IMG/VR virus record: IMGVR_UViG_3300037851_000671 | Location: 154,773 to 218,772 of that record | Strand: one strand, 5' to 3' | Length of the DNA stretch: 64,000 nucleotides | Origin: a virus | Lineage: Duplodnaviria > Caudoviricetes | Shown here: piece by piece, positions 10,621 to 63,994 of the stretch | How the letters are laid out: each line of letters starts with the position of its first letter | Numbering within the stretch: the stretch's first letter is position 1 | Notes under the pieces: model-generated | Databases searched by the model: none | The model's input: only the letters and a program-made list of their open reading frames with translations | What the model was told of the DNA's origin: nothing | Translations under genes and position numbers: made by a program

Positions 10621-10641
10621 TTGGTAGCGTGTGTAGTAAAT

Positions 10642-10712
10642 GACAGCGAAAAAAAAGATCCGACCTTTTATTTGGTTTTGAATTCGAGATGAAAGATCGG
10701 TTGCGCGCTGTC
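10642..10712 (-). ncRNA. modular Y-RNA-like element E1 (minimal, no tRNA cargo)
   Basis: GACAGCG-CG..CCGATC-TTTCATC..GGTCGG..TTTTTTTT-CGCTGTC; ends complementary. Confidence 0.75.
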
Positions 10713-10715
10713 TAG

Positions 10716-10788
10716 TCGGGCGGGAGGGATTCGAACCCCCAACTATTCGCTTATGAGGCGACTTTTCTAACCGTTGAAATACCACCCG
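10716..10788 (-). tRNA. tRNA with CAT anticodon (elongator Met or Ile2)
   Basis: acceptor CGGGTGG/CCGCCCG, anticodon loop CTCATAA, T-loop TTCGAAT. Confidence 0.85.
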
Positions 10789-10792
10789 AAAC

Positions 10793-10909
10793 GGCAACGA
10801 AATTATGTAGACAATAGGCCGGCTTTTTACACCGTTTCCAAAGCCTCCGATGGATTCGAACCACCTAGCGCCAATTGATGATAGATGAAATGTCTACGAG
10901 CGCGTTGCC
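10793..10909 (-). ncRNA. modular Y-RNA-like element E2 (T-arm plus hairpin cargo)
   Basis: GGCAACG-CG..GTAGACA-TTTCATC..GGTGGTTCGAATCCATC..TGTCTAC..TTT-CGTTGCC. Confidence 0.75.
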
Positions 10910-10919
10910 AGAAATTAAA

Positions 10920-11054
10920 GAGTAACGAAAATTGCAGGACCACTGTTTTTTGTGCTACAATTACAACACATCCAGCCTTTCGACCGGAGCTGGGATTCGA
11001 ACCCAGACCTCTTAATTCTCAATTTAGGATGAATGATCCCACTGCGCGTTACTC
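10920..11054 (-). ncRNA. modular Y-RNA-like element E3 (circularly permuted tRNA cargo)
   Basis: GAGTAACG/CGTTACTC closing stem; T-arm CTGGG-TTCGAAT-CCCAG; acceptor TCCGGTC/GGCTGGA capped by GAAA; D-arm-like segment follows. Confidence 0.85.
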
Positions 11055-11212
11055 GGTGCTTCGTTCTATGTTTCCACAGAATGAAACGAGAGCGTAAAGT
11101 AAACCGAGAATATTGATAGATTCTCGATTGGGGTTTCTGCACGATGCCTGCTTTTTTGGAGGCAAACGCATATTCTCGGATTGTCTTTGAGACAGTTGAA
11201 AGGTGTTAGAGG

Positions 11213-11413: not shown

Positions 11414-12122
11414 TCTTTTCTTAGAGAGACTTGCAGAGGGCTTGGATTCAACATCAAAGCTTACTCATGCTTTATTGTCTGAGATCAGAGATTCTGAAGC
11501 GGATTTTGCCTCCATCAAAACCGAGCTGTCAATACTAAGAGAGAACGTTAAAGGACTGTCAGAGATTGTCAGGGAAGGTAATGGAGCCACATCTATTCTC
11601 ACACGTATTGCGCTTATTGAGGCGCGAATACAGAACATTGAGAAGTGGATGGAAACCCACATCGATCTTCATCAGGAGGAAAACGCTGACGTGAGCAAGG
11701 CTCAGGAACAGCTGAAAGACCTCGATAAGAAGATCGCCGCGTTAACTTCAGTTGTCAATGAACTAAAATCTCACGCCGATGATATTGAGAAGAAGAGGCG
11801 CGAGAGTATAGACCGCGAGCTAGAGCTTCAGCACGAGGACAAGAAGAGCAAGATAGGGGTAGCTGCCGAAAGACAGCAGACCATTATCAAAGTCCTTGGT
11901 GCCCTGTTGTTGGCCGTGCTTGGCGCTGCTGGTGGCTATTTAGCGAATTCTTGTCATGGGACCGCCGGAGCGGCGCAGCCAAGGAGCGTTATTGTTGCCC
12001 CCTCGGCTGCCCCTATCCTAGCTCAACCGGCCGAGCCGATCAAGGAGAATCTGACTCCTCAACCGCCGTCACAGCCGCTTCTTCAGCCTTCGGTTTCTGC
12101 TGTTGCAAAACGAACTCGTTGA
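11388..12122 (+). CDS. coiled-coil protein with C-terminal transmembrane segment
   Basis: heptad-rich body; hydrophobic 'IIKVLGALLLAVLGAAGGYLA'. Confidence 0.55.
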   Translation: MATSKTTNDLFLERLAEGLDSTSKLTHALLSEIRDSEADFASIKTELSILRENVKGLSEIVREGNGATSILTRIALIEARIQNIEKWMETHIDLHQEENADVSKAQEQLKDLDKKIAALTSVVNELKSHADDIEKKRRESIDRELELQHEDKKSKIGVAAERQQTIIKVLGALLLAVLGAAGGYLANSCHGTAGAAQPRSVIVAPSAAPILAQPAEPIKENLTPQPPSQPLLQPSVSAVAKRTR

Positions 12123-13686
12123 GATCAAAATCCCTGATCGCCTTGACAATGTTGATACCAACATACTCAAGGTTCTTGAACAGTGCCGGTGTCATAGTCT
12201 GATACACGGTGACACTACGATCACCGAAATCAGCGCTGTGCCACTGGTAGTTGCTGGCATTGATAACCCAAAGCTCTGCCTCTGGGTTGACCTTCTTGCG
12301 ATACTCAGCCCAAGCCCTTGTCAAAGGAGTGCCAGCGTTCTGCTGCTCATCAGTGATCAAAACCATCAAATCAAGCTTACGCTTGCTGTTGGTTGCGTTC
12401 TCGATTGCCAGAGAAACCGTAGTTCCACCGGCAACCCTGAGAGCCAACAGATTCTTAACCTGATTCTTGCGATTCAGGCCAGTGATCCTTGGGCACATAC
12501 CGCTAGCGTAGCCGTAACGACCTCCGTGACCCTCCTCATACAAGGCGTTATCAAAAGTTGTGAACCAAAGGTTTGTAGCCTTTAGGAATGGCACTGCCAA
12601 CAGACCAGCAGTCTGAAGAGGCTCCCCGTTCATAGAACCAGAGATATCAACAGACACACCAACTCTCTTACCTTCAATGGTAGGCATTGGTACGTCCAAT
12701 GTTGCAACCATTGCATCGATAAGAATGTCCTTGACCTTTTCGTGCTTGGCGAAAATGTATGGCTTTGCAAAGTCAAGCGGAAGAGAGCGGCCATTCTGAA
12801 CCTCTCCCATCTTTAGCTTGAGCGCGGTCAGTCCATCCGTGGTGTCGAAGACATTGCGCTCTTCGAGAGAACGGATGTTGAGCAACAGAGCTGTCAAACC
12901 CATCTGAGTCATCGAGGCCATTGCAAGAGGACCCTTGAGTCCCGCAAAACCCTTAACAACATCCCATGGGATTTCATTTTCCAGCATCATATCAGCGATC
13001 TTCTTTGGATCACTGAGCTTCTTCATCATCTCAACAGCAACCTGCTTGGAACCGGTTGCCTCGGCCTTACGACCGTCCAAGACATACAGAATGACGTTTG
13101 CACGACCGTCTGTATAACGTGGGTGAACCAAACGAACGAGCTGATTCAAAGCAGTTGGATACTTGAGCGTGAAGTTTTCAAGCTTCTTATATCCCCACTT
13201 CTCCATTGCCGCGCGCACCCACTTCTGAGCACGCGAACCAAAACCACGACCCAACTGCTTGCTCTTGCACAGCTCCACGAACTGGATCAATTGACCAGGG
13301 TGGAATGTGCTAAGCAATGCAATAGCTGCCTGCTTATTTACAGGAGAATCCAAGAACTGCTCGTTTGCAGATCCGGCAATGGCAGCAAGAGCTACCTTAA
13401 CCATACCTTTCATATGGCTATTGCGGGCAAAGCAAGCCGCCTTGAGCAGGTACTCAGGGTCCAGCTTCGCGCGGTCAATGAGCAACGGCAGAGCTTCTTT
13501 TGCCGCGTCATCAACAGAGCGATAAAACTGGTTCTTAAGAATACCAGTCAAAAGAACACGAGCAACCGAATCTTCAGGAAGCTCATTCTTGGACAGATAT
13601 TCCGTCTTGGTCACAACCTTCTCAGGCTGACCCAACAGAGCCTTAACAAAAGAAGTGGACTTAACCTTGTTTGTTGTCTTATTCAT
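12040..13686 (-). CDS. rsr: Ro60/TROVE-domain RNA-binding protein with vWA domain
   Basis: 548 aa; TROVE-like helical N-part ('DPEYLLKAACFARN', 'LVRLVHP', 'IPWDVV', 'LTALLLNIRSL'), vWA MIDAS 'VDISGSM', 'GGT', 'LITDEQ'. Confidence 0.88.
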   Translation of the reverse strand: MNKTTNKVKSTSFVKALLGQPEKVVTKTEYLSKNELPEDSVARVLLTGILKNQFYRSVDDAAKEALPLLIDRAKLDPEYLLKAACFARNSHMKGMVKVALAAIAGSANEQFLDSPVNKQAAIALLSTFHPGQLIQFVELCKSKQLGRGFGSRAQKWVRAAMEKWGYKKLENFTLKYPTALNQLVRLVHPRYTDGRANVILYVLDGRKAEATGSKQVAVEMMKKLSDPKKIADMMLENEIPWDVVKGFAGLKGPLAMASMTQMGLTALLLNIRSLEERNVFDTTDGLTALKLKMGEVQNGRSLPLDFAKPYIFAKHEKVKDILIDAMVATLDVPMPTIEGKRVGVSVDISGSMNGEPLQTAGLLAVPFLKATNLWFTTFDNALYEEGHGGRYGYASGMCPRITGLNRKNQVKNLLALRVAGGTTVSLAIENATNSKRKLDLMVLITDEQQNAGTPLTRAWAEYRKKVNPEAELWVINASNYQWHSADFGDRSVTVYQTMTPALFKNLEYVGINIVKAIRDFDLNEFVLQQQKPKAEEAAVTAVEESDSP

Positions 13687-44795: not shown

Positions 44796-45122
44796 TTATA
44801 CTTTTTTGTATATGTTAGGTGTTGTATTTAGAACACCATCAGCGGCGGCAAGAATGCCATAATCACCATTTGGCCATGTCACAACTATGAGGCGTATATC
44901 ACAATCATCTCCCATAATTGATTTTACCGACGTGACAGCAGAAGCCTTGGAGTTCTCTAGATTTTTGTCATGAATTCTGGTAATAAAAACAGTGTTATCA
45001 AATACTCTTGTTTCGGGAAGCGATGAAATCGTCACAAAAGGCTCAGGCATATCTCGTGTGAAAGAGATCACCTCATCATCAGCGATATTGATGTTTGTTT
45101 GATTTACAATTGTTTTGTGCAT
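44796..45122 (-). CDS. hypothetical protein
   Basis: 108 aa ORF. Confidence 0.4.
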   Translation of the reverse strand: MHKTIVNQTNINIADDEVISFTRDMPEPFVTISSLPETRVFDNTVFITRIHDKNLENSKASAVTSVKSIMGDDCDIRLIVVTWPNGDYGILAAADGVLNTTPNIYKKV

Positions 45123-45197
45123 GGCATCCTGGGAGGGACTTGAACCCCCAACGTTCGATTTAGAAAAACGATACTCTATCCATTGAGCTACCAGGAC
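45122..45197 (-). tRNA. tRNA-Arg(TCT)
   Basis: loop TTTCTAA, encoded CCA. Confidence 0.87.
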
Positions 45198-45201
45198 GTT
45201 G

Positions 45202-45283
45202 CACCCCCGGCAGGATTCGAACCTACGGTGAGTTTCCTCGGAAGATTAGAAATCTTCTGCCTTATCCACTAGGCTACGGGGGC
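45202..45283 (-). tRNA. tRNA-Arg(TCT) with an extra variable-arm hairpin
   Basis: loop TTTCTAA; variable region contains GAG-GAAA-CTC. Confidence 0.8.
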
Positions 45284-55079: not shown

Positions 55080-55204
55080 AGCAACGAAAGAATCGAAGAC
55101 CTTGCTTGTCGGCTGCTCTACCACTGAGCTATGTGGCGGGAAACCACAGCAGGACTCGAACCTGCGACCCGCTGATTAGGATGAAGGATCCTCTACGCGT
55201 TGCT
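55080..55204 (-). ncRNA. modular Y-RNA-like element E4 (circularly permuted tRNA cargo)
   Basis: AGCAACG/CGTTGCT; GATC-CTTCATC; T-arm GCAGG-TTCGAGT-CCTGC; acceptor TGTGG/CCACA closed by a loop; D-arm GCTC-AGTGGTA-GAGC; GGTC. Confidence 0.9.
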
Positions 55205-56470: not shown

Positions 56471-56622
56471 AAGGAACGAAAAAGCGAAAGACCAGTTTTT
56501 TCGCGCTCTACCAGACTGAGCTATATGCTGATGTTGGGCTTTATGAGCCTTGTCAGCATAGTTGGATTCGGACCAACGACCTCGATCTCCTAAAGATGAA
56601 TGATCTTTCTAACGCGTTCCTT
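56471..56622 (-). ncRNA. modular Y-RNA-like element E6 (circularly permuted tRNA cargo)
   Basis: AAGGAACG/CGTTCCTT; GATC-ATTCATC; T-arm GTTGG-TCCGAAT-CCAAC; acceptor TATGCTGA/TCAGCATA with inserted hairpin; D-arm GCTC-AGTCTGGTA-GAGC. Confidence 0.9.
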
Positions 56623-60263: not shown

Positions 60264-60269
60264 AAAATC

Positions 60270-60360
60270 GTGATGACATTTGCCAGCGCTGGTCATTTGT
60301 CATCACTAAACCTGGTTGTGGATTCGAACCACTATGCGCGCCTGCCTGCCTGGCTACAGA
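60270..60360 (-). other. tRNA-like fragment (D-arm + T-arm, no anticodon arm) followed by a long hairpin
   Basis: TAGCC-AGGCAGGCA-GGC, GTGG-TTCGAAT-CCAC, then GTGATGACA/TGTCATCAC. Confidence 0.45.
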
Positions 60361-60364
60361 TCTG

Positions 60365-60446
60365 TGCAGATAGTGGGTCTCGAACCCACATGTCCTTAAG
60401 GACTCTACGCTCTGAACGTAGTGCGTTTGCTTTTCGCCATATCTGC
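60365..60446 (-). tRNA. tRNA-Leu(CAG)
   Basis: loop TTCAGAG, long variable arm. Confidence 0.88.
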
Positions 60447-60636
60447 AAAAACCGGGGCTGCTCTATCCATTGAGCTAATCAACTTGTATTCAAACATTTC
60501 TTCGAACGGCACCTTCGCAAAGTGATATCCCTTTGCACTCCAGGCTTTAGCTTTCGCGTAACGTTGAGAGGAAATTGCCTTTGCAGGACTGTCATACATG
60601 TTGATATTGGATTCGAACCAATAACCAACCCCTTAG
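60447..60636 (-). ncRNA. circularly permuted tRNA-like RNA P1 with ~125-nt insert at the acceptor end
   Basis: GGGGT-TGGTT-ATTGG-TTCGAAT-CCAAT-ATCAAC-[insert]-GTTGAT-TA-GCTC..GAGC-A-GCCCC. Confidence 0.75.
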
Positions 60637-60680
60637 GGTGACCAGTTGGTACCGCCCCAACTACGACAGAGCCACAATCT
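60637..60680 (-). tRNA. 3' half of split tRNA-His(GTG)
   Basis: AGATTGTGGC-TCTG, T-arm GTTGG-GGCGGTA-CCAAC, acceptor strand TGGTCAC, C73. Confidence 0.75.
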
Positions 60681-61155
60681 GCCCGCTCACTTCTTGCGTT
60701 TGGTCACATTTAAACTGACGTGCTAGTTTATGTACATGGAACCTTGTGATCCCATAAACCTTACTGATTGATACTGCACTTTCTCCATTTTTGTACCTTT
60801 CAACAATTTCTGTTTTCACATTTGGTTTTAGTGTTTTTCTTACAGGGTTGTAACTATTGATAGCTAGATTTATTTGCTCTTTTCTTCTTAGTCCCATGTG
60901 AGGTTGAAGCTCTTTCATAAGAACCACAGCCCTACCTCCTTTAAGTGCTGTGGCATATGGTGTTTTGTGATGTGCCTTTTGCTTTTTACACTTGCGATAA
61001 GTAGAGCCAAAAAGCATAGCAGCTTTTGCAACAACATCTTCATCAGTCATCATCAATGTAATAGCTGGGCAATTTGGCCTGCTTGGTGGTGATTTTAGAA
61101 AAGAACCCTCACCTTCTAAAAGCCCTGCAAGCCAAATCAAATCGTATTCTTTCAT
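60661..61155 (-). mobile_element. LAGLIDADG homing endonuclease inserted in tRNA-His
   Basis: 'IWLAGLLEGEGSF', C-terminal HTH; last codons read through the tRNA-His anticodon arm. Confidence 0.88.
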
Positions 61156-61195
61156 GAATAATCATATATCAAGCTCAACGACTTATTACAACTGG

Positions 61196-61233
61196 GCCAC
61201 AATCTAGTGCCTTAACCATTAGGCTACGATCAC
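61196..61233 (-). tRNA. 5' half of split tRNA-His(GTG)
   Basis: GTGATCG-TA-GCCT-AATGGTTA-AGGC-A-CTAGA-TTGTGGC; acceptor strand pairs 7/7 (with GU) with 60638-60644. Confidence 0.8.
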
Positions 61234-61336: not shown

Positions 61337-61417
61337 TAGCACCGAAGGGATTTGAACCCCCACGCCCGAAGGCATCAGCTCCTAAGGCTGACGTGTCTGC
61401 CGTTCCACCACGGTGCC
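61337..61417 (-). tRNA. tRNA-Leu(TAG)
   Basis: loop CTTAGGA, variable arm. Confidence 0.9.
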
Positions 61418-61459
61418 ATATTTGTAATTTTGCACATATGCATATTTGCAGATTTACAT

Positions 61460-62401
61460 ATGAACCTAGAGAAGTATATCGTGTTACACGGCAGCCCTAT
61501 CAAGCTGCCCAAGCCTCATGCAGATTTTGTTGACTTTTACTACAACAACATGATGCATGATAAGAAGTTCGGAGTTATCCATATGCGAAAGGCCAGACAG
61601 GTTGGTTTTACCAGTTTGAGTCATGGGCTTTCGTTAGCTTTGGCCATGGAAGAGGTTGTTAGGGTTTATCACCTTCATCCTACTATGGCTATGGCAGCAC
61701 AGTCAGCTCAAAAAATAAACGATATGATTCTTGATGCCCCAAGAGGAATGACCAAGAAGCGCAATGGCCTTCTAAAATCTGTCATTGAAGAAAAGTTGAA
61801 ATGGGGTCCTCAATGCGATACCAAAACCAGAAAAGAGTTTGAGAATGGAAGCTCAATCCTAACAGAGTCAACTGGGAACAATGCCTGCCGTTTGAGGGGA
61901 GGAAGCTGTGACATTTCTTTTTTCCATGAGTCACAGCGCATGGAGCCAGAAGCTATGAGGAACGCAAGTCATCTTTCATCCCATTCACAATTCGGTGTGC
62001 TTGGTCTTGGTGTTCAGACTTATATGTTCACACCACAAGAGGAAGATGATTATTCCGATCATATGTGGAAAGATTCAGACCAGAGGAGGTTCCACTACAG
62101 GTGCGAGAACTGCTCCTGTATGTTCCCAATCATGCAAAGCAATTTCCGTGAGATTTGGTTGTATGGATTTACCATCCGTTGTCCAGAATGTCACAGAGAG
62201 CAGGACAAGAGAAACGCCATGAAACGCGGAGAGTGGATAGCTACAGCAACCGAGTCACATGTTGCTGGATTCCATATGGACCAGTCTACCATGGAGTTTT
62301 TTAGCCGTGAGTCAATTGATGCGTGCTATAATGACAGAACCATGACGGAAAGGAATATCGCTAATGAAGTATGGGGAGAGTCTTTTCCGAAAGAACAGTA
62401 A
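61460..62401 (+). CDS. terminase large subunit (GpA-like) ATPase-domain protein, nuclease domain absent
   Basis: 'MRKARQVGFTS', 'RLRGGSCDISFFHE', Zn ribbon 'CENC..CPEC', 'VAGFHM'; start at MNLEKY. Confidence 0.65.
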   Translation: MNLEKYIVLHGSPIKLPKPHADFVDFYYNNMMHDKKFGVIHMRKARQVGFTSLSHGLSLALAMEEVVRVYHLHPTMAMAAQSAQKINDMILDAPRGMTKKRNGLLKSVIEEKLKWGPQCDTKTRKEFENGSSILTESTGNNACRLRGGSCDISFFHESQRMEPEAMRNASHLSSHSQFGVLGLGVQTYMFTPQEEDDYSDHMWKDSDQRRFHYRCENCSCMFPIMQSNFREIWLYGFTIRCPECHREQDKRNAMKRGEWIATATESHVAGFHMDQSTMEFFSRESIDACYNDRTMTERNIANEVWGESFPKEQ

Positions 62402-62402
62402 T

Positions 62403-62650
62403 AAAACGGGGACTGCTCTACCAATTGAGCTAATCCAACTTTGTTCGATAACTAACGCCTCTTCAAACTCGCACCGTGTGGAAATCGCGTTTTTCCGTGA
62501 CAGGCTTTAGCAACAAGCCATGCAAGACATCCCCTCGCGAGGGAGCTAACACGGACTAACAGTTGCGTAAGAGTTGATAGGAGACAGTCTTATGAAGCAC
62601 TGTTACTTATCGAGTCGAATGCCGGACTCGAACCGGCAACCTTCCCCTCA
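62403..62650 (-). ncRNA. circularly permuted tRNA-like RNA P2 with ~175-nt structured insert at the acceptor end
   Basis: GGGGA-AGGTT-GCCGG-TTCGAGT-CCGGC-ATTCGAC-[insert]-GTTGGAT-TA-GCTC-AATTGGTA-GAGC-AG-TCCCC. Confidence 0.8.
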
Positions 62651-63166: not shown

Positions 63167-63175
63167 ATTGAAAAG

Positions 63176-63271
63176 AGGATAACGAAAATTGGTTGACCTT
63201 TTGCCTTACGGCACATTACGTTTCGGTTTTTATTACTGATGTAGATGAAAGATCAAACCTGCGCGTTATCT
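63176..63271 (-). ncRNA. modular Y-RNA-like element E9 (short non-tRNA cargo)
   Basis: AAGATAACG/CGTTATCCT; GGTTTGATC-TTTCATC..GGTCAACC. Confidence 0.8.
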
Positions 63272-63350
63272 TGGAAGCGGGTCTTGGATTTGAACCAAGG
63301 AAACTAGGCTTATGAGACCCAGGAGTTAGGCCAGACTACTCTAACCCGCG
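63272..63350 (-). tRNA. tRNA-fMet(CAT)-like
   Basis: C1-U72 mismatch, loop CTCATAA, encoded CCA. Confidence 0.8.
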
Positions 63351-63359
63351 ATAGTGAAT

Positions 63360-63517
63360 AAGCAACGAAAAGATTTGAGACCCTGCCTTTCGGCTCTGTT
63401 GTGTATACCAATTCCACCATACCGGCGTTTCCACGTTTCCACCGATAGCGGGACTCGAACCCGCAAACGTATTAGGTGACAGTTTTACAAGATGAAAGAT
63501 CTCGGATCGCGTTGCTT
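63360..63517 (-). ncRNA. modular Y-RNA-like element E10 (permuted tRNA-Leu-like cargo)
   Basis: AAGCAACG/CGTTGCTT; GAGATC-TTTCATC; long variable region, T-arm GCGGG-TTCGAGT-CCCGC, Leu-type D-arm GGTGGAATTGGTATACAC. Confidence 0.88.
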
Positions 63518-63519
63518 TG

Positions 63520-63607
63520 TGCCGCCGACAGGATTCGAACCTGCATGAACGTTTTGTGTTCCTCACGCTCTCAACGTGATATGTATACCAAATTCCATCA
63601 CAGCGGC
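63520..63607 (-). tRNA. tRNA-Leu(GAG)
   Basis: loop TTGAGAG, long variable arm. Confidence 0.9.
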
Positions 63608-63609
63608 AA

Positions 63610-63791
63610 AGGATAACGAAAGATTGTCAGACGGGTTTTTCAACACCAGTCTGCCCATTGTTTTCAGAAGAATTGAGACTTGTTTTTACCGGCACAACCA
63701 GCATCTCAATTTGGCGGGCAGCTAAGGAATCGAACCTTAATGTCTATACGTTGGAAATATTAGATGAACCATCTAACTATGCGCGTTATCT
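63610..63791 (-). ncRNA. modular Y-RNA-like element E11 (permuted acceptor with encoded GCCA)
   Basis: AGATAACG/CGTTATCC; AGATGG-TTCATC..CCGTCT; T-arm TAAGG-TTCGATT-CCTTA; GCTGCCC-GCCA-insert-GGGCAG. Confidence 0.82.
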
Positions 63792-63869
63792 TGGTTGCGG
63801 AGAATTGGATTTGAACCAATGACCTTCGGGTTATGGGCCCGACGAGCTACCTGACTGCTCTACCCCGCA
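63792..63869 (-). tRNA. tRNA-fMet(CAT) with C33
   Basis: anticodon stem TCGGG/CCCGA, loop CCCATAA, encoded CCA. Confidence 0.85.
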
Positions 63870-63875
63870 ATAATT

Positions 63876-63994
63876 AGCAACGAAAGGAGCGAGACCCTAC
63901 ATGCCCACATGGGCGATTCCCCAGTGAAAAGAACCCGAAGGTTCGGTGGGGAATTAAGTTTCGAGCTTAGATGAAAGATCCCTAACGCGTTGCT
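63876..63994 (-). ncRNA. modular Y-RNA-like element E12 (multi-hairpin non-tRNA cargo)
   Basis: AGCAACG/CGTTGCT; GGGATC-TTTCATC..GGTCTC; internal TTCCCCA/TGGGGAA and GAACC-TTCG-GGTTC stems. Confidence 0.82.

Follow-up and report, generated by a model that had tools for sequence, protein, structure and literature searches.

The stretch of DNA analysed here (the window) forms the final 64 kb of an IMG/VR virus record (G000) of 218,772 bp with an estimated completeness of 51%. All 31 tRNA genes that ARAGORN finds in the window lie on the minus strand, and the 190-nt element described here, P1 (60447..60636), is therefore to be read on that strand as well. P1 is a conserved small RNA of a huge freshwater phage, encoded in an array of tRNA genes. 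Downstream it runs directly into a tRNA-Leu(cag) gene (60364..60446, minus strand), which is called by both ARAGORN and Rfam and starts at 60446. Upstream it is abutted by the discriminator of a non-canonical His-like cloverleaf with a GUG anticodon (60637..60707, minus strand). An earlier reading of the letters alone, here called the sequence-only reading, had taken this neighbour for a tRNA-His; its fold and anticodon agree with that assignment, but its D and T loops depart from the canonical form, and no tRNA is called at about 60707-60637 by either ARAGORN or Rfam.

The His-like cloverleaf overlaps the 3' end and stop codon of a homing-endonuclease-like ORF (61155-60661, minus strand), which matches phrog_5046 (E 2e-20) and contains a LAGLLEGEGSF motif. 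Within 60661-61233 (minus strand) this ORF is found between a 5' fragment of tRNA-His (GTGATCG... at 61233) and the cloverleaf. At the same place, contigs of metagenome run X5 carry a canonical T arm and the acceptor strand CGATCAC, which matches the tRNA-His 5' fragment. The arrangement looks like a tRNA-His gene that was invaded by a homing endonuclease.

Several other elements of the array deserve mention. Between tRNA-Leu and tRNA-Glu lies a second non-tRNA element (60264-60363, minus strand), with a counterpart at L003:13000-13100 (minus strand) in the second IMG/VR record that harbours P1, G001. It has a closing stem around a T arm, with covarying strands (AGAUCUG/CAGGUUU here versus AAUCUUG/CAAGAUU in G001), and behind it come a long perfect hairpin and UUUU that lead directly into tRNA-Glu. 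On the opposite strand, between the tRNA genes and the P1 paralog P2, a 349-aa ORF (61352-62401, plus strand) resembles the ATPase part of a large terminase (PF05876, phrog_675); a search of IMG/VR by peptide patterns gave no relative of it. At 45122-45283 (minus strand) two tRNA-Arg(tct) genes stand in tandem; in the first the CCA end is encoded, and its D arm is the same as in P1.

A tRNA core in rotated order

Positions in P1 are numbered as p = 60637 minus the window coordinate, and all of its parts are on the minus strand. Read from 60636 to 60447, the order is closing-stem strand, T arm, acceptor 3' strand, insert, acceptor 5' strand, D arm, closing-stem strand and U run. A 5' tail CUAA (p1-4, 60633-60636) precedes the strand GGGGU (p5-9, 60628..60632) of a closing, anticodon-stem-like helix, which pairs with GCCCC near the other end (p179-183, 60454..60458); the U:G pair of this helix is A:U in P2. 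After a variable stretch of 5 nt follows the T arm AUUGG-UUCGAAU-CCAAU (p15-31, 60606..60622) and then the acceptor 3' strand AUCAAC with an additional A (tRNA positions 66-72; p32-38, 60599..60605). Across the insert (p39-152, 60485..60598) this strand pairs with the acceptor 5' strand (A)GUUGAU (positions 1-7; p153-159, 60478..60484), with an A.A mismatch at position 1:72. The dinucleotide U8-A9 (p160-161, 60476-60477) precedes the D arm GCUC-AAUGGAUA-GAGC (p162-177, 60460..60475), to which an A at p178 is appended. Behind the second closing strand, the 3' tail GG-UUUUU (p184-190, 60447..60453) stops at the 5' end of tRNA-Leu. The two arms were assigned from sequence and fold, the acceptor 5' strand from sequence, fold and pair counts, and the closing 3' strand from pair counts. 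Assignment of the insert is based on a manual model, the alignment of P2 to the covariance model R1 described below, pair counts and natural variants.

The rotated cloverleaf is the minimum-energy fold of the 190 nt of P1, and P2 folds likewise (62651-62405). Nucleotides that make tertiary contacts in tRNA are present in P1, including U8, A14, the D-loop GG, the T loop UUCGAAU, A15/U48 and G46. If the insert is removed and the ends are joined in silico, P1, its ortholog in G001 and P2 are called cloverleaf tRNAs by ARAGORN. All parts named in the sequence-only reading are present on the minus strand, and the rotated order is confirmed by sequence and fold. Its estimate of about 125 nt for the insert was too high, since AUCAAC and GUUGAU are separated by 116 nt. 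Its statement that a Ro stem is missing was correct: P1 carries no Ro-binding handle and its ends pair for only 5 bp.

A canonical tRNA was rejected as an explanation, as P1 in its native order is called by neither ARAGORN nor Rfam and has no contiguous cloverleaf. With neither an anticodon loop nor an acceptor end that is free, P1 cannot decode. What it has is the complete L-shape of a tRNA in rotated order, with an acceptor helix that runs on into a conserved domain of 116 nt with two junctions.

The insert, the paralog P2 and natural variants

P2 (62401..62651, minus strand) is a divergent paralog of P1, located 2 kb away and directly after a tRNA-Met. The covariance model R1 was built from P1 and the G001 ortholog only, leaving P2 out; it matches P1 over positions 1-190 at 237.9 bits and P2 over the same positions at 72.1 bits (E 8e-19). 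R1 aligns P2 along all 190 positions and places its extra 52 nt in the loop of arm 1. The inserts of P1 and P2 align with a score of 62.5, compared to 39.8 +/- 5.5 in shuffled sequences and above all 1000 dinucleotide shuffles. The shared sequence that had been pointed out earlier, the 11-mer GCTAAAGCCTG, indeed occurs without mismatch in P2 at 62501-62511; allowing up to one mismatch, the window contains 6 matches to it versus 0.85 expected by chance.

In the alignment of P1, the G001 ortholog and P2, 98.3% of the cells are standard pairs. Changes on both sides were found for 14 of the 58 pairs, compared to 5.3 +/- 1.8 in shuffles (none of 500 reaching 14) and at most 2 in slid controls, where the counts come from three full sequences only, in an alignment fitted to the model, and P2 was consulted when helix B was chosen. 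Three of the double-sided changes between P1 and P2 are in the T arm. Covariation between the separated acceptor strands, the absence of which the sequence-only reading had regarded as fatal to its proposal, is present: between P1 and P2, two acceptor pairs differ in both partners and another two in one partner. The covariation shows that the helix is real; it does not thereby show that the helix is opened.

The hand-derived model of the insert continues the acceptor helix with two extension helices (p39-46 with p142-152), followed by two three-way junctions. The first junction carries arm A (p50-59), which has a GNRA loop, and helix B (p62-75 with p129-141), which is interrupted by an internal loop and one bulge. 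The second carries arm 1 (p76-90), also with a GNRA loop, and arm 2 (p92-128). The arm-2 loop GGAUAUCA (60523..60530, minus strand) has 8 nt, contains the 6-nt palindrome GAUAUC, and is unchanged in G001 and in metagenome runs X2, X4 and X5; further occurrences of GATATC in the window proved uninformative. A rival core of the insert, the one with minimum energy, was discarded; the natural variants G96>U, G97>U, A98>U and G121>U break it without compensation, and in the hand-derived model p96-98 and p121 are loop positions. The fold energy is unremarkable, with a z of -1.07 for the whole of P1 and of -0.08 when the insert is taken by itself. Since thermodynamics gives no signal, the structural support for P1 is entirely comparative. 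Palindromes were also seen in P2: its arm-2 loop AACGCGA (62482-62476, minus strand) holds CGCG, to be compared with GAUAUC in P1, and its long arm 1 (62556-62506, minus strand) holds the perfect palindrome CCCUCGCGAGGG.

An Rfam scan of P1 and its insert, which had been suggested at the outset, yielded no family at the gathering threshold or at E <= 10, and the sole match, to HTH-XRE with 16.9 bits, is noise. Hammerhead-like or other ribozyme cores were not seen in the insert, either with Rfam or by eye.

The ortholog of P1 in G001 (335,988 bp) has 93% identity. It is likewise followed by tRNA-Leu, and it is preceded by a normal tRNA-Met, unlike P1 in its own genome. Contigs from four unrelated metagenome studies (runs X2-X5) cover P1 with few changes. 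Upstream of P1, X5 has a canonical-looking T arm and CGAUCAC, X4 has another tRNA, and X2 and X3 are as in the own genome. Over these six sources the neighbours of P1 change and P1 itself is retained, in each case adjoining the 3' end of a tRNA.

The T-stem pair U16:A30 is C:G in G001. The tetraloop of arm A changes from GCAA to GGGA in G001, X3, X4 and X5, and that of arm 1 from GAAA to GUAA in G001; both remain GNRA loops. Two further changes, C128>U in X4 and C37>U in X3, leave G:U where there was G:C. Run X2 has AUCAGG/CCUGAU in place of the arm-2 stem UGCAAAG/CUUUGCG, a difference of ten substitutions and six indels, and its loop GGAUAUCA is intact. This variant is a single 151-nt contig at depth 2, but sequencing errors do not replace both strands of a stem in so coordinated a manner. 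A pair is broken by just one change, U159>G in G001. Furthermore, the D loop is one nucleotide shorter in G001 and X2, and the 3' tail reads G-U5 in G001 and G-U6-AA in X2. In X4 one 197-nt contig at depth 23, aligned to 60477-60640, continues after GUUGAU with UCUUUCCUUCCUCUC (15 nt, to the contig end) and has no D arm. It represents either a variant without D arm or a break due to recombination or assembly, and the D arm may accordingly be dispensable or replaced in some relatives.

The exchange of neighbours bears on the question whether P1 could be a functionless by-product of rearrangements in the array, for example a decaying set of tandem tRNA copies truncated by homing-endonuclease traffic. 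The homing-endonuclease-like ORF and tRNA-His fragments directly upstream would fit such an origin, as would the weak matches of R1 at tandem-tRNA junctions (45163-45240). Yet P1 is near-unchanged in six sources despite their differing neighbours, the changes that do occur are compensatory or in loops, and the diverged P2 retains the entire architecture, which makes decay extremely improbable. A coding function is contradicted by the in-frame stop in P2 and by the six single-nucleotide indels in X2. In particular, a 64-aa ORF at 60405-60599 was rejected as coding because it spans the D arm into tRNA-Leu and the corresponding frame of P2 has a stop. Taken together, the comparisons indicate that P1 is a real, selected RNA.

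Exact-pattern scans of IMG/VR found no P element beyond G000 other than the one in G001. Pattern scans returned only two matches in metagenome contigs, both coding and due to chance, and 15 in bacterial genomes, all of which were rejected by R1. A more distant relative found through its Ro60-like ORF, G002, has no P element in its 209 kb according to nhmmer and R1, and the same searches of G000, G001 and G002 gave no further family member.

Proposed release and display, and possible opening of the acceptor helix

In view of the above, P1 may well be a stable, non-decoding elbow scaffold that is freed by tRNA-processing enzymes and displays its insert, a reading that we consider somewhat better than an even bet. 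In such a scenario P1 would be transcribed within the tRNA array and released by the enzymes that mature the neighbouring tRNAs. Processing of the upstream tRNA at its 3' side would define the 5' end of P1, giving a 5'-phosphate on CUAA..., and RNase P acting on tRNA-Leu would define the 3' U-tail ...GGUUUUU. The tRNA-like core could serve as a scaffold for folding, processing and stabilisation that is recognised by tRNA-handling enzymes, and the insert would be presented to a protein or RNA partner. Its conserved sequence makes the palindromic loop GGAUAUCA a likely point of contact, and this loop possibly engages in a kissing-loop contact with a second copy of itself.

A second scenario, which we regard as possible but distinctly less probable, is that P1 is opened at the acceptor. 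RNase P would cut 5' of +1 (p152/153) and a 3' nuclease would cut behind the discriminator, leaving a two-piece tRNA-like RNA or a free insert of about 115 nt. In the version with insert release, a single tRNA-like fold would set both ends of the released RNA, and if the acceptor is indeed opened in vivo, P1 would be a processing cassette that fixes the ends of an embedded RNA with one fold. The layout of P2, in which the acceptor has 7 pairs and an unpaired ACAAA stands immediately before +1, is suggestive of such a cut. The helix of P1 is, moreover, interrupted exactly at 1:72, a place that shows A.A in the own genome, G.A in G001 and, in X2, a bulged A. However, the P1 helix extends 5 further pairs beyond -1/73, and pairing that is extended past -1/73 disfavours RNase P. 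Another counterargument is that the acceptor 3' strand is not followed by CCA or C. A precedent for the two-piece form exists in YrlA of M. smegmatis: its acceptor stem has 7 bp, and in vivo it is cleaved by RNase P and CCA is added to it (PMC4201824).

Comparison with permuted tRNAs, tmRNA and Y RNAs

The gene order of P1 calls to mind the permuted tRNA genes found in algae such as Cyanidioschyzon merolae (Soma et al. 2007, reviewed in PMC4090602). In both cases the 3' half is located upstream of the 5' half in one transcript, with the break in the anticodon region. By definition the leader and trailer of a permuted tRNA gene pair into a bulge-helix-bulge motif (PMC4090602). P1 lacks this motif, joining of its ends does not give a 7-nt loop, and between its halves lies a long stretch that is both conserved and structured. 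The phage has a bacterial host, with no known splicing endonuclease.

Still, one may ask whether P1 is a true permuted tRNA, apparently for Arg-UCU, of which the ends are trimmed and ligated and the insert is removed at the acceptor. Apart from the order 3' half, spacer, 5' half, this is suggested by the joined ends, in which the loop of a tRNA-Arg(UCU) can be read, as UUUCUAA here and as UUUCUGA in G001. ARAGORN calls the joined P2 a tRNA-Arg(tct) when its tail is cut by hand after GUU, and does the same for a P1 given a 7-nt loop by hand. The natural joins of P1 and its ortholog, on the other hand, are assigned odd loops by ARAGORN. Untrimmed, the joined loops have 11 nt in the own genome, 10 nt in G001 and 13 nt in X2 instead of 7, in variants that are near-identical. 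The P1 of the own genome would have G33, and in X5 the C of CUAA is part of the upstream tRNA. The tails CUAA and GGUUUUU do not pair, and as P1 is flanked by other tRNAs a bulge-helix-bulge cannot form. A removable spacer would not be expected to retain covarying helices and a fixed loop. The core is no nearer to tRNA-Arg than to tRNA-Thr, and descent from tRNA-Arg(UCU) finds no support because tRNA-Thr(tgt) scores equally well.

The RNA ligase families RtcB, RNA_lig_T4_1 (Rnl1) and RNA_ligase (Rnl2-type) were not found in three partial genomes; the T4-type control matched nowhere, so that the blank for this type carries no information. We consider a true permuted tRNA very unlikely. Much the same holds for the far-reaching idea that permuted tRNA genes occur in a bacterial virus, with P1 and P2 as the first examples. 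In that case release by RNase Z and RNase P would be followed by trimming of the tail to three nucleotides, joining of a UCU (Arg) loop by a host ligase or an unrecognised phage ligase and excision of the insert, which with its structure would act as a regulated maturation switch. We give this scheme hardly any weight. The sequence-only reading had offered two choices. The elbow scaffold is in line with the complete tRNA core, the conserved covarying insert and the missing Ro handle. The other choice, a precursor closed by ligation in the anticodon region and cut open at its acceptor, is not supported: the joined loops would have 10-13 nt, a bulge-helix-bulge cannot form, and the ligase families were not found in three partial genomes.

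A rotated tRNA-like domain, with the T arm and acceptor 3' strand ahead of the acceptor 5' strand, is also a feature of two-piece tmRNA. P1 differs from it by having a full D arm and neither a tag reading frame nor pseudoknots. A two-piece tmRNA was rejected, as ARAGORN and the Rfam tmRNA models detect nothing at P1 and no frame is common to P1 and P2.

The closest parallel is with YrlA (Rfam RF02553), a Y RNA with a tRNA-like part that is found in bacteria and in actinobacteriophages (Chen et al. 2014, PMC4201824). P1 has the same order of inner stem, variable region, T arm, closed acceptor-like stem, D arm and inner stem. The T-arm and D-arm modules that mark members of this group are present, the tRNA tertiary nucleotides are kept, and the CUA ahead of the inner stem equals the YrlA consensus at that place. 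The differences are substantial as well. The known Ro-binding motif of YrlA, GNCGAAN0-1G near the 5' end (PMC4201824), is not present in P1, of which the 5' end is CUAAGGGG, and neither is the long terminal stem. In YrlA the acceptor hairpin is closed by a loop of a few nucleotides, whereas P1 and P2 have a conserved branched domain of 116-175 nt. P1 is embedded in a tRNA array and does not adjoin rsr. The YrlA model (gathering threshold 69 bits) gives no match to P1 or P2 even at E <= 10. Sub-threshold YrlA matches do occur in the same arrays at 55112-55172 (minus strand, 42.5 bits) and 56482-56610 (minus strand, 37.8 bits); the latter element has a 25-nt insertion in its acceptor-like loop.

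As with YrlA, the genome that carries P1 also has a Ro60-like gene. The ORF of 548 aa (12040-13686, minus strand) encodes a protein distantly similar to Ro60 and matches PF25045, the Ro60 vWA domain, with 30.1 bits against a cut-off of 27.7, and Ro60 in the PDB at E 2e-4; Pfam TROVE itself gives no match. RNAs just downstream of the gene have a common terminal handle, stem-CG-CGC ... UUU-CG-stem. The handle is repeated at 10640-11060 and 63170-63990 (both minus strand), and its outer stems vary yet stay complementary (GAGUAACG/CGUUACUC, GGCAACG/CGUUGCC, GACAGCG/CGCUGUC). These Y-like RNAs resemble P1 in their location in the same arrays, their strand and their tRNA-like body, and one copy in G001 has an identical T arm. 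The handle is absent from P1 and P2, which carry the large acceptor domain instead.

It is conceivable that P1 is a Y RNA of the phage Ro60-like protein, bound in a way other than through the common handle. The matches of the ORF to Ro60, the YrlA-like RNAs in the same arrays and the agreement of CUA with the YrlA consensus would be consistent with this. [quoted passage not shown] Having no handle, motif, YrlA score or Ro60 proximity, P1 and P2 are not filed as YrlA members.

Whereas the known tRNA-mimicking Y RNAs are short and defined by a Ro60 handle, P1 and P2 demonstrate that the same tRNA-like module can exist without it, and that its acceptor arm can bear a large RNA domain under selection. 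A literature search on YrlA in phage and on permuted tRNA in bacteriophage gave no report of such an RNA. The two elements broaden the known tRNA mimicry of giant phages, and P1 is a natural case of a tRNA scaffold for another RNA. At 190 nt it offers a defined object for asking what phage tRNA arrays encode beyond tRNAs. P1 and P2 are tRNA mimics that are related in design to the bacterial Y RNAs, and they represent a new variant of that design.
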